Part shown: piece by piece, positions 1,620-15,887 of the stretch | Layout of the letters: each line of letters starts with the position of its first letter | Numbering within the stretch: position 1 is the first letter of the stretch | Source: an uncultured Muribaculaceae bacterium | GTDB lineage: Bacteria; Bacillota_I; Bacilli_A; RF39; UBA660 | Direction: 5' to 3' | Assembly: GCA_964533935.1 (NCBI GenBank) | Contig: CAZHOG010000002.1 | Coordinates: forward strand, 23,529 to 87,528 | Length of the DNA: 64,000 nucleotides | Position numbers: made by a program

Positions 1620-4600
1620 TTATTTGTCCATTATCAATATTAAATATTTTTGCTTTTTTTATTAATGATTTATCAATATTTTCAATATTTGTAGTAGTTA
1701 TAAAAGTTTGTATCTCATTATTTAACATTAAAAGTATATTATTTATTTTTAATGTATCTAACTCACTAAATAAATCATCTAATATTAATATTGGATAATT
1801 TGACTTTTTATCTTTAATTATGTTTATTTCACATAATTTTAAAGAAATAATAGCATTTTTTTGCTGTCCTTCACTTCCATAAAATTTTAAATTCATATCA
1901 TCTAAATAAAATTCTATGTCATCGTGATGAACACCCAAAGAAGTTTTACCAATAAATAAATCCTTCTTTAAATTTTTTTTATACTTTTCAAAAATGCTGT
2001 TTTCTGTTTCATCATTGAAATCAGAAATATATTTTATTATCAAATTATCGTTTCCTGTTATTTTATTATATATATTGCCAATATTTGAATTAACTTGTTC
2101 ATAATAATTAAATCTATCTTTATAGATTTTAAAACCATATTCTATAAGTTTTCTTGTTAAAACATCTAAATATTCACTGCTAGTATTAGAATTAATGGAC
2201 ATTGTTTTTAAATAAGCATTTCTTTGTTTCAATATTTTATTATAACTATTCAAATTTTTTAAATATTCAACACTTATTTGAGAAATCTCAATATTCATAT
2301 TTTTTCTTCTTATACTAGGTGTATCTTTAATTATTTTTAAATCATCAGGATTAAAAATAACAACATTTATTTTAGAAATATAATCACTTATTCTAGGTAC
2401 TTTAGTATTATTTATTTTAACTTTTTTACCATCATTACTCATGATTACCTTATAATTATTGGTATAATTATTTTTAACATTACCCTCAATCTTTAATACA
2501 TTCTTATCTTTTAAAATTAAATTTTTATCAACAACCGCCCTGAATGATCTTGTTAATGCAAGTACACATATGGCTTCGACTAAATTAGTCTTACCCATTC
2601 CATTGTTTCCATAAATTAAATTTAAATGATTAGCAAATGCAATCTCTAATTTTTCGTAATTTCTAAAATTTACTAATTTCAAATTAATGATTTCCATTTT
2701 TATCACTCTTTTATGTACATATAATAAAATAGTAGGTTTCTAAGTACTCCCATACCTACTATTAATTATACCATTAAAAAGGGTATTTTTAAAGCTTTTT
2801 TTGTGATTTTCTACCTCTTAAAACAGCATCTAATCTAGTTGCTCTAAGAATTTGATTATCTATTATTCCATATGATAAATTTAACATTATTTTTTGATTA
2901 TTTTTAAACTCAATTACTATTTTATTATTACTAGAATAATATTTTTCAAGATTATTTAAAGATATCCAATTACAATTTTTTAATCTTGGTGAAGAAGTTG
3001 GAAAAAAGATAATATTTTTTGATTCTTCTATTATAATAGGTGCTTTATAAGATACTCCTATTAGTTTTTCAGTACCTTTTTGTCTACCAGATAAAGAACT
3101 TCCAAAATAATAACAACTATCTTCCATAATTTTACTAATTTGTTTATCAACAATAAATGTGTCATTAAATTCAAATACTTTAGTTCTATTATCTAAAGAT
3201 ATCAGTGCTAAAGTTTCTTCATTAATTTCATACTCTTTCAATATTTCACCCCCTTACAAGTAAAATTGTTTATCTTATACCAATAATAAAAGCAAAATAT
3301 TGTCATAATATGTAACAAAATAAAAAAAACTTACATTTAGTAAGTTTTTATAGGTAAAATTAGTTCAATTAAAGTATCATCTTCAGCAGATTTTAAAATT
3401 ATTGGTTTAACATCATTGATTAATAATAATTTAACATCTTCAGCTTTAAATACTTTTAAAGCATCAAGCATATATTTAGAACTAAATGAAATATTTAATG
3501 AAGATTCATTATTTGTTTGAACATTTAATTTTTCTTCTACTTTTCCTATTTCTGATGCATAAGAATTTATTATCATATCATTATTTTCAATTTTCATAAT
3601 AACAATATTTTTATCTTTACCTTGTGTTAATAAAGAAGCTCTATCAACAGCATCATGATAAGAGTTTAAATTAACAGACGCTTCAATTTCGAATTCAGTA
3701 GGAATTAAATTAGATGTATTTGGATATGTTCCATTTAATAAATTTGATTGAAATATTAAATTTTTATATTTAAATAATATTTTATTATTAAAAATATGAA
3801 TATCTACATCTTCAGTTTCTGTTAATATCTTTTCTAATTCAATAATATTTTTTCCTGGGATAACAATATTAACATCTGTTTCCACAGGATTATTTAATTT
3901 AATAGTTTTTTTAGATAATCTATAAGAATCTGTTGCAATACACTCTAATATATCACCAGTAATTTTTAAATTTAAACCTGTTAATAAAGGTCTTAATTCT
4001 TGTGTTGATATTGCAAATGCTGTTTGATTAATAATTTGTTTTAAAAGATCTGAACTAATAATAATAGGATCTTTATTTTCTTCTAATTTAACAACTGGAT
4101 ATTCTTTATAATCTAAACAATTAAGATTATATTGATTATTTTCTGTGTATATTTTTATTCTAACATTATCAACTAATTCAAAATTAATTAAATCAGATGG
4201 CATTTTTCTTATTATTTCTAATATATATTTACTTTGAATAACAACAATTCCTTCTTTTTCAACATTAGTGATGTCTTTTCTATCAATAAATGATTTAATT
4301 GTTAATTCACTATCACTAGCTGTTAATTCTAATCCTTTATCATTTAATTCTAATTTTATACCATTTAATATAGGTATAACGTTTTTTGTAGATACTGCCT
4401 TAATAACATTATTTAAATTTTCTAATAATATATTTTTTGTAATTGTAAATTTCATTTCTATTTCCTTCTTTCTTTTATTACATTAATAATATCGTTAATA
4501 TTGTTGATAACTTTGATATTTGCCATATTTATGCCTAAAATTTATGTTTTTGGATGTTGATAAATTACAAATTTTATTGTTACTTATCAACATATTAATT

Positions 4601-13600: not shown

Positions 13601-15887
13601 TATGTTGTTAAAATAATTAATGCTATTAAAATAATATAAGAATATTGGTGTAATCCAAATCCTTTTAATGGAGTCATTCCTAATTTCCATCCTAAGAATG
13701 TATCTTCAAAAATAGCTGGAACACGATTAACTGCTTGTAAGAAAGCAAAGAATAATGGCAATTGTATGAATGCTAATAGACAACTTCCCATAGGACTAAT
13801 GTTGTATTTTTTATAAATCATCATCATTTCTTGACTTTTCGCCATCATTGATTCATTATCAGTTTTATTTGCATATTTCTTTTCTAATTTTTGTAATTCT
13901 GGATTTGCTTTTTTCATATTTTCAGATTGTTTCAAAGTTTTCTTAGAAAAAGGCATTAGGATTAATCTAATTAATAATCCAACTAACATTACAGAAATAC
14001 CATAATTTTTAACTAACTTACCAAGTTTTAATATTAAGAATGCTAATGGTTTAACAAAGATTGCATCCCATAATCCTTGATATTTACCAGAATTTATTTT
14101 GAAATTTTTACATTCAGGTAAATCTTTTAAGGAAACAGTTAATTGTTTATCATATTTTTCATATAATTCATATAAACTATTCTCTTTTCCTTTATCTCCT
14201 GGCTTACATAAAATATTTTTTTGTAAGCTTTGACCAGTTTCTTCATATGTTACCACTGATTTATCATCTTTAATATAGTTACTGCTTCCACATCCTGTAG
14301 ATAATAAAACAACGCATAGTATTAAAATACTACATATCTTTTTTTTCATATATTCTCCTTCAATAAAGTAATTAAAGAATTATCTAATTCTTCAAAAGAC
14401 ATCTCTAAACACTTTCTTTTTAATATTATAATATAATCAAAGTCTTTTTTAAATAAAAATTTGTTTTTATCAACAATATTTCTAGTAATTCGTTTATATT
14501 TATTTCTAATAACAGCATTACCTATTTTTTTTCCAACTGCCATTCCAAATTTTGGATAATTACAATCATGTTTCATATAGTAAATAATATATACTTTATT
14601 TTTAATATAATGACCATTATTGATGATATTATCATACTCTTTGTGTTCTTTTACTACTTCATATTTCTTCATAAACATCCCTTTTTTACAAAAAAATCAC
14701 ATCTAAAAATGTGATTTACTTACATAATTCTTTACGTCCTTTTTTTCTTCTTTTATTTAAAATATTTGTTTCTTTACGAGCAAAGAATCCATGTTTTTTA
14801 GCTCTTCTTCTTTTATTTGGTTGAAATGTTCTTTTCATATATATATTAACCTCCAATCTAAAATTGCATTGCTATTATACTAATAATTTGCTAATAAAGT
14901 CAAGGAATAAGTATATTTTTTTTTAAAATTATGATAATATGTATATATATCTTGGGGTAGTTTATGGTTTTCGACATTTATTACTAGATATGACTGCAAG
15001 TGGTAGGCATACCTTAAATGCAACATAAAATTAAATGACAAAGCTGATTATAGCTTTGCTCCAGCATTTGCCTAATTTAAGGTGAGGAGCACTTCTACTA
15101 TTTTTTTCTTATAGGAATAGATAGAGGTTCATAGATATAAGATATATTATGAAAATTGTTTAGGTTTTTATAATGAATTTTACTAAACTCGTTATGTTAT
15201 GGGTAAGTAATAGCCAGTGATATAATTAAATAATAAATCTTGCTAAACTTGTAGACGTTATATAATAGGATATTATGGACAGGGGTTCGACTCCCCTCTA
15301 CTCCACCATAGTGATTTTTAGTCGAACTAATCGACTTAATATAAATAAAGGTTAATTTCGGTTAACCTTTTTTATATGCTTTGAGAGGAGTTGATTAGTT
15401 ATGCAAATAATAAAGGAAAAATATGAAATTGAGGAAACGTTAAATAAAAGAGTAAGAAATATATTAATGTTTCTAAATCTAAAAAGTAAATTAGAAGAAG
15501 GTAATATAATTAGTATTTCTAAAACAAATCTTGCATATATTGAACCTCATAAATTGAAAATCAAAGATATAACTTATCTATTCTTTAATGATTGTAATGA
15601 TGTTTATATTAATTCATTAGAAAATAAAATATCTTTTAATGAACTTCAAAGTTTTATTAAAGCACAAATTAACTAATACCATTCCCTAAATAAGGAATTG
15701 ACAATTAAAATTATAATGATAAAATAAATAACCAATAAATGACAAGCAGTATCCGTCTTTATTAGAAAGAGAGGTACTTCTATGATTAAATGCACAATAA
15801 ATTTTATATTAGATTTTAAGGAGTTAAAGATATTAGTTAAATAGCTAGTATTTTTGACTCCCTTTTTTATGGAAAAGGAGTTGATAG

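Follow-up and report, generated by a model that had tools for sequence, protein, structure and literature searches.

The gene order rnpA-rpmH-dnaA-dnaN is among the most conserved in bacteria and is routinely used for the prediction of the chromosomal replication origin (oriC). In Bacillus subtilis, the unwinding module incC comprises distal boxes for the initiator protein DnaA, then box 6/7 adjoining the DnaA-trios (PMC6669920). In Clostridioides difficile, the origin includes oriC1 and oriC2, the dnaA-dnaN spacer is where the DNA melts, and the genes typically form the row rnpA-rpmH-dnaA-dnaN (PMC7561715). The subject of the present analysis is the dnaA neighbourhood in a 64,000-nt stretch of DNA from an uncultured gut member of Bacilli (approximately 24% GC; contig CAZHOG010000002.1, positions 23,529–87,528; hereinafter “the window” refers to this whole stretch), where rpmH and the genes linked to it are inverted relative to dnaA. 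Judging by its sequence, this locus is a bipartite oriC of the Firmicutes type with one defining feature of the context, the divergent rpmH, missing.

As in B. subtilis (incA/B plus incC) and C. difficile (oriC1 plus oriC2), clusters of DnaA boxes are present on both sides of dnaA; the spacer downstream of the gene harbors distal boxes, a proximal pair and an AT-rich trinucleotide run followed by dnaN, and the row dnaA-dnaN-recF-gyrB is retained. In contrast to both organisms, rnpA-rpmH is situated 9 kb upstream and points toward dnaA instead of being its divergent neighbour, a gene of a short-chain dehydrogenase (SDR) with its terminator abuts the upstream box cluster, and comK takes the place of the usual small gene between dnaN and recF. 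The inversion is real, but the departure from the familiar layout is modest; relocation of genes in the origin neighbourhood is known elsewhere. In Escherichia coli, oriC is located between mnmG (gidA) and mioC, about 42 kb from dnaA. The window resembles such a relocated oriC in that the linkage of rpmH-dnaA to mnmE/mnmG/rsmG is rearranged and the strand switch is uncoupled from dnaA. Unlike in E. coli, the boxes stayed with dnaA: no box cluster was found outside the dnaA flanks, including the vicinity of mnmG (9.4–11.3 kb) where a gidA-linked oriC would be expected. Origin-proximal inversions making operons head-on to the fork have been engineered in B. subtilis in studies of replication-transcription conflicts. 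A block of co-oriented operons close to oriC has presumably been turned against the fork in the window as well; unlike the engineered cases, this inversion is natural, fixed genus-wide, and involves housekeeping operons of moderate size, not those of rRNA.

Profile searches against NCBIfam and Pfam placed the entire row gyrB'-recF-comK-dnaN-dnaA-SDR-parB-rsmG-mnmG-mnmE-jag-yidC-rnpA-rpmH on the minus strand, bearing out all gene identities and strands given by the original prediction, a first reading of the same sequence. The features of the neighbourhood (L-numbers here and below designate related loci; tmRNA, transfer-messenger RNA) are as follows:

up to 1619, minus strand: 3' part of gyrB, on the dnaA operon side, in canonical order (profile match)
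1597–2706, minus strand: recF (NCBIfam/Pfam match)
2789–3241, minus strand: comK (NCBIfam/Pfam match)
3337–4455, minus strand: dnaN (NCBIfam/Pfam match)
4601–5956, minus strand: dnaA, 451 aa (TIGR00362, 488 bits)
6182–6943, minus strand: SDR gene (NCBIfam/Pfam match)
7005–8657, minus strand: gene of a ParB/Noc-like protein, 550 aa (NCBIfam/Pfam match)
8678–9400, minus strand: rsmG (profile match)
9384–11249, minus strand: mnmG (profile match)
11260–12645, minus strand: mnmE (profile match)
12746–13351, minus strand: jag (profile match)
13354–14349, minus strand: yidC (profile match)
14346–14678, minus strand: rnpA (profile match)
14716–14838, minus strand: rpmH, true start MKRTFQP at 14838
7005–14838, minus strand: the inverted block (parB/noc-like, rsmG, mnmG, mnmE, jag, yidC, rnpA, rpmH), opposite to its dnaA-relative orientation in 62 relatives
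14954–15308, plus strand: tmRNA (ssrA; Rfam RF00023, 115.9 bits; also called by ARAGORN in L003 and L081)
49073–51016, minus strand: PBP1A gene, adjoining uvrB; second boundary of the rearrangement

The gene calls agree with the reported absence of a divergent rpmH-dnaA pair: instead of the canonical context rnpA-rpmH<>dnaA-dnaN, rpmH lies 8.9 kb upstream of dnaA on the same strand and is co-directional with it. The global switch of gene orientation is located at 14.84–14.95 kb, between rpmH and tmRNA, not at dnaA: 14/14 genes to the left of it are on the minus strand and 38 of the 41 to the right on the plus strand (the latter count covers the next 41 open reading frames of at least 90 aa, taken as genes). 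The switch had been described as free of visible DnaA boxes, and the spacer 14839–14953 indeed contains no DnaA box, no CACA and no TGTG.

A scan with one genome per species yielded 80 dnaA loci, onto which the window proteins were mapped; all of them come from uncultured gut Bacilli-like genomes (e.g., “Mycoplasma sp. CAG:776”, “Candidatus Caccenecus”, “uncultured Bacilli/Tenericutes”). The order rpmH>...parB> SDR> dnaA> was encountered only in L001–L004 (DnaA identity 82–89%), and the canonical rpmH< dnaA> in 62/80 loci (DnaA identity 60–69%); in the other 14 loci, the upstream sequence was uninformative or the block was out of reach. A metagenome scan added one more clade member, contig L081, with the same order, and the tmRNA divergent from rpmH was found in L003 and L081 as well. 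Overall, the order is documented in six independent assemblies: the window, L001, L002 (the SDR-dnaA part only), L003, L004 and L081. Since close relatives alone share it and 62 more distant ones keep rpmH<>dnaA, the inverted order is derived, confined to and fixed in a genus-level clade, and not family-wide. The architecture is therefore atypical, as originally proposed, and neither ancestral nor universal.

Other breaks of the rpmH-dnaA adjacency were observed in L079, L067, L047, L052, L055, L059, L062, L065 and L071: L079 lacks an rpmH block in the 10 kb preceding dnaA; in L067, rpmH and dnaA are 3.8 kb apart, and in several others from this list about 1–1.4 kb. Within the inverted block itself, the jag/mnmE interval of clade members carries differing insertions, mostly on the opposite strand:

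L001, 2427–3389, mostly opposite strand: DUF4190 membrane protein and a helix-turn-helix regulator
L004, 1650–3380, mostly opposite strand: ABC transporter

On the other side of dnaA, the order dnaA-dnaN-comK-recF-gyrB is the same in the relatives whose loci reach far enough; the ComK-family gene, which separates dnaN from recF in the window and in all these loci, is an uncommon, fixed element of the row dnaA-dnaN-recF-gyrB. As for the ParB/Noc-like protein, only its first ~205 residues match the ParB N-terminal and helix-turn-helix domains; its long C-terminal part gave no family match, and there is no parA/soj gene adjacent to it.

The breakpoints can be located with the help of the following two features:

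14839–14953: rpmH/tmRNA spacer, 115 nt, 82.6% AT, comprising the gene-strand switch and one inversion junction
14903–14874, minus strand: rpmH promoter (cTTGACT-18-TATAAT) and ribosome-binding site within this spacer

Four clade members share 89% identity over the spacer. The rpmH promoter and ribosome-binding site align with those of the outgroups up to the -35 box, where the homology stops; beyond it, the outgroups possess DnaA boxes vs. tmRNA in the window clade. Because the rpmH homology ends at the -35 box and the positions of the dnaA-side boxes are shared with L051 and L054, the alignments place the cut between the -35 box of rpmH and the DnaA-box cluster, with all boxes remaining with dnaA. 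Next to parB, the outgroups have a convergent PBP1A gene, beyond which lies argS-prfA-prmC-murA. In the window clade, the PBP1A gene keeps argS...murA on one side and abuts uvrB on the other, 34 kb from the block. Thus, three differences from the outgroups are established: the block is inverted; SDR with its terminator is inserted beside the boxes; and rpmH is separated from PBP1A by a 34-kb segment extending from tmRNA to uvrB.

Only the window clade has an SDR gene that separates parB from the box cluster; SDR homologues elsewhere reside in unrelated contexts. The ancestral location of the gene was sought, and the metagenome scan returned L081 plus homologues with 51–57% identity in unrelated contexts. 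The ancestral location of the tmRNA-uvrB segment was not recovered either: uvsE, one of the genes of the segment, has its homologue in a related abundant species within a lepA-gpr-spoIIP / recO-era neighbourhood that lacks tmRNA; accordingly, the segment is a lineage-specific mosaic. A search for inverted repeats linking 5.9–6.3 kb with 14.8–15.0 kb gave only AT-rich matches at the chance level. A flip of the block alone and its flip jointly with the tmRNA segment around the divergence point are both compatible with the data.

The elements typical of an origin are retained beside dnaA and conserved in relatives. The window contains 53 copies of the DnaA box TTATCCACA (≤1 mismatch) vs. 24.7 ± 5.1 in shuffles. 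Within the 64-kb window, including its part from 15 to 64 kb, the boxes form clusters only at 4502–4592 (three boxes per 91 nt) and 6002–6231 (nine boxes per 230 nt, two of them perfect, where ~0.09 would be expected at ≤1 mismatch). Clusters flanking dnaA at 4502–4592 and 6002–6180, the latter with perfect boxes, had been anticipated; the upstream one turned out to extend to 6231. The elements in question are listed below:

5957–6231: oriC1-like cluster of DnaA boxes upstream of dnaA, doubling as the dnaA promoter region; box starts at 6002, 6041, 6052, 6095, 6104, 6163, 6172 and 6223
6132–6166, minus strand: SDR-gene intrinsic terminator (14-bp stem, then a T-rich tail) that overlaps the outermost boxes
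4456–4600: dnaA-dnaN spacer, 145 nt, 80.7% AT, oriC2-like, with boxes and an AT-rich trinucleotide run

Counted from the dnaA start, the upstream boxes lie at -54, -93, -104, -147 and -156, and their counterparts in L051 and L054, two basal relatives, at -46, -83, -96 and -147; the box at 6223 falls within the 3' end of SDR. The upstream spacer is 228–235 nt long in the window clade vs. roughly 300–500 nt in most outgroups, and the dnaA-dnaN spacer is ~148 nt long in most relatives. The latter harbors, at 4493–4592, three boxes and one degenerate tandem partner: two inverted distal boxes near the dnaA stop codon (4584–4592 and 4555–4563) and a proximal tandem pair consisting of 4502–4510 (TTATCAACA) and 4493–4501 (ATATTAACG). 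Next to the pair is the AT-rich trinucleotide run 4475–4492 (TAT AAT AAT TAC ATT ATT on the plus strand read 3'->5'), and the ribosome-binding site of dnaN comes after it. The tandem boxes together with the TAT/TAA run make up the best-conserved part of the spacer across 20 diverged relatives. Likely, the run 4475–4492 is the unwinding site. Its assignment to the DnaA-trios is only compatible with the sequence: two units fit the A-variant of the trio, chance matches come easily in a spacer with 81% AT, and the AT content there exceeds the mean of the window by no more than 5 points.

Three tandem box-like 9-mers, reported earlier inside the 3' coding end of dnaA, are real (~4671–4699): a perfect box at 4681–4689 and two degenerate ones with a 10-bp phasing. 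They arise from a coding constraint, since the codons GAT CAT TCC ACA GTT ATC CAC AGT ATC AAC, read in frame, encode DHSTVIHSIN, the conserved DNA-contacting motif of DnaA domain IV; the motif thus incidentally endows the initiator gene with a binding site for its own product. In some relatives, an extra cluster of 4–5 DnaA boxes is present ~9 kb downstream of dnaA, just past gyrA, with no counterpart in the available part of the window:

L010, 19790–20110: post-gyrA box cluster
L014, 19310–19636: post-gyrA box cluster
L074, 18947–19295: post-gyrA box cluster
L076, 9598–9803: post-gyrA box cluster
L078, 16062–16324: post-gyrA box cluster

With a little better than even confidence, these features can be read as an origin still residing at dnaA, with the ~9-kb block facing one of the forks head-on. 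A bipartite origin of the Bacillus/Clostridioides type would be formed by the cluster upstream of dnaA (5957–6231) and the dnaA-dnaN spacer (4456–4600). In the ancestor of the genus-level clade, rpmH-rnpA-yidC-jag-mnmE-mnmG-rsmG-parB was inverted; the SDR gene with its strong terminator now stands between parB and the boxes, and a mosaic 34-kb segment beginning with tmRNA between rpmH and the old neighbour pbp1A. One fork would then have to pass about 10 kb of oncoming transcription (dnaA, SDR and the block) on its way to the co-oriented genes at tmRNA, and the SDR terminator may shield the box cluster from read-through. The elements beside dnaA probably constitute the active origin, and hence the block would be head-on. 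The original prediction of a block transcribed head-on to the rightward fork is thus upheld as far as a real, derived architecture with boxes and unwinding-type elements kept beside dnaA is concerned; the head-on state itself is only probable, and the third-position skew cannot discriminate. The high expression and essentiality ascribed to the block genes are an assumption.

The nucleotide composition deserves a separate consideration in this regard. The whole-sequence GC skew changes its sign at about 15.0 kb in the window. A skew minimum at 14.9 kb had been named beforehand as an observation that would speak against the original prediction, and formally it is there; at the same time, in every gene class G exceeds C at first codon positions, in the coding sense, by +0.45 to +0.57, so the flip at 15 kb follows the coding strand and restates the strand switch. 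Third positions, of which only ~10–12% are G+C, gave the following GC skews:

dnaA operon: +0.09 (standard error 0.07)
block: +0.16 (standard error 0.06)
plus-strand genes of the right arm, three segments: +0.33, +0.12 and +0.22
three opposite-strand genes of the right arm: +0.01 (+0.10 without the primase)

The replication-linked term of the skew in this genome amounts to about 0.02–0.1, giving the third-position test little power for the head-on question. Placing the origin by composition was abandoned: the whole-sequence skew is a coding-strand effect, the GC skew at third positions is too weak in the clade, and the AT skew at third positions is a coding-sense and not a strand effect, as found at a calibration locus. 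The opposite-strand open reading frames in the block of L001 and L004 were also rejected as internal contrasts: they offer too few sites and are probably recent acquisitions.

Many relatives with the canonical order, those with a stronger strand bias, exhibit a peculiar skew pattern. In most of the relatives (L005–L080, L091, L096), the third-position skew keeps one sign across the rpmH-dnaA-gyrA neighbourhood; only the genomes with a weak skew look canonical in this respect, and the pattern is phylogenetically structured. In the large clade AB, third positions are G-rich in the dnaA operon and PBP1A but neutral to C-rich in the rpmH block, which has the opposite orientation (in L066, block -0.52 vs. 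operon +0.73). In two extended AB contigs, the argS-murA genes are near neutral on average with a large gene-to-gene scatter, and no switch of the third-position skew was found within 20 kb upstream of dnaA in the extended contigs of L091 or L096. Clade C, monophyletic and sister to an AB-type genome, displays the reverse pattern with a G-rich antisense strand (in L062, block +0.81 vs. operon -0.51); the synteny in this clade breaks at jag|mnmE. One consistent model is that, in AB and C, the forks cross the dnaA neighbourhood one way, and clade C has an inversion of the segment with jag...dnaA. The measure itself behaves normally in an ordinary chromosomal region of one relative (majority strand +0.40, minority strand -0.41). 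Since the DnaA tree puts the window clade outside AB+C and the skew of this clade is weak, the AB/C pattern was not transferred to it.

Several observations weigh against an origin at dnaA with a head-on block. The gene orientation is strongly polarised and changes at rpmH/tmRNA, not at dnaA. The third-position skew of the block (+0.13 to +0.26 in the clade) is never below that of the dnaA operon (+0.07 to +0.20), and a head-on block alone would show a lower skew; this argues mildly against such a block, yet the difference is within the gene-to-gene scatter. Finally, there is no skew switch at dnaA in the large sister group with the canonical order, therefore dnaA-side box clusters are no guarantee of a polarity switch there. 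These facts would fit a replication polarity switch at or very near rpmH/tmRNA, with the dnaA-side boxes mainly regulating dnaA/dnaN. In that case, the inversion would do no harm or would be of advantage, since one fork would run along with rpmH...parB-SDR-dnaA-dnaN-recF-gyrB and the other with tmRNA and the genes beyond it; in a historical variant, the segments parB..rpmH and tmRNA..uvrB would have been inverted symmetrically around the divergence point. The sharp strand switch at 14.84–14.95 kb and a block skew that in every clade genome equals or exceeds the skew of the dnaA operon speak for it, as does the AB-type arrangement, where the rpmH block is on the C3-rich strand and the dnaA operon is G3-rich (C- and G-rich at third positions, respectively), so that a block flip could restore co-orientation. 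However, the junction is a mere 115 nt filled by the conserved rpmH promoter and the start of tmRNA, i.e., two divergent promoters free of DnaA boxes and of CACA/TGTG, and therefore it is an unlikely origin; no other box cluster exists at 15–64 kb, the DNA past tmRNA is variable, mobile and different between clade members, and the skew evidence is within noise. A switch at the junction is therefore considered unlikely.

If the active origin were outside the window, the dnaA neighbourhood would lie within one replichore, and the switch at 14.9 kb would be a relic of the rearrangement. This is what clades AB and C would suggest, keeping one sign of the third-position skew over at least 30 kb around dnaA (L066, L062) by a measure that is sound elsewhere. 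However, the window clade branches outside AB+C, and such a placement would require a 49-kb or a 15-kb run of head-on genes. In addition, the third-position skew of pbp1A in the window and L095 is below that of its oppositely oriented neighbours, as if the forks diverged between pbp1A and gyrB (in L093, the difference is small). On balance, an origin elsewhere is very unlikely. A chimeric join produced during assembly might be suspected, as the source contig appears to be metagenome-assembled. Its probability is close to negligible: the tmRNA|rpmH and parB-SDR-dnaA junctions recur in independent assemblies from different studies, between which DnaA has diverged by 11–18% and the junction spacers are conserved; with six assemblies carrying the order, misassembly is excluded.

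The DNA beyond the strand switch possesses features of its own. The tag frame of the tmRNA, read from the sequence at ~15036–15077, encodes ...NDKADYSFAPAFA*, and the same tag was called in L003 and L081; the tag proposed by ARAGORN for the window tmRNA (VHRYKIYYENCLGFYNEFY) was dismissed as looking like a miscall. Mobile-looking DNA directly follows:

15401–31106, plus strand: mobile-looking DNA 3' of tmRNA, ~16 kb of the 34-kb segment
15891–17687 and 29586–31106, plus strand: large serine recombinases (profile matches)
25875–28223, minus strand: P4-type primase (profile match)
28750–29586, plus strand: RstR-like repressor (profile match)

Other genes in 15401–31106 include those of DUF6414, Clp-like AAA ATPase, ABC-F, GT2, APH-like and HAD proteins. 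Like tmRNA (ssrA)-adjacent islands, the window and L081 bear recombinase-containing mobile DNA directly 3' of tmRNA, with a recombinase near the tmRNA 3' end in the window (15891–17687) and a different serine recombinase (47% identity) in L081. The enzymes are large serine recombinases, and the repeat of the tmRNA 3' end that would delimit such an island was not found in the window: the 25-nt end occurs there once even at ≤3 mismatches, and no convincing direct repeats were revealed. Accordingly, the tmRNA 3' end was discarded as an island boundary. The mobile island is a neighbour of the junction and not necessarily its cause. Further along, an ornate large extremophilic (OLE) RNA is encoded at 58034–58535 on the plus strand, downstream of murA (Rfam, 214 bits), followed by an open reading frame (58551–59066) with a weak CNNM-type transmembrane match.

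For automated origin callers, the locus is a warning, since the minimum of the whole-sequence GC skew and the DnaA-box cluster disagree by 9 kb as a result of the first-position G excess on the coding strand. The missing skew switch at dnaA in the relatives could matter more than the inversion, if confirmed on closed genomes. It is conceivable, if quite unlikely, that the polarity switch is uncoupled from dnaA and its boxes in the whole order-level group, being located at the box-free rpmH/tmRNA junction in the window clade, with forks crossing rpmH-dnaA-gyrA one way in AB/C and the inversion selected to restore co-orientation. If true, this would mean an origin without a recognisable DnaA-box cluster, or a relocated one, in bacteria keeping a textbook-looking oriC beside dnaA. 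As it stands, the clade shows that the rpmH side of one of the most conserved bacterial gene neighbourhoods can flip and become fixed with every DnaA box staying with dnaA, and it offers a natural case for asking how well head-on transcription near the origin is tolerated.

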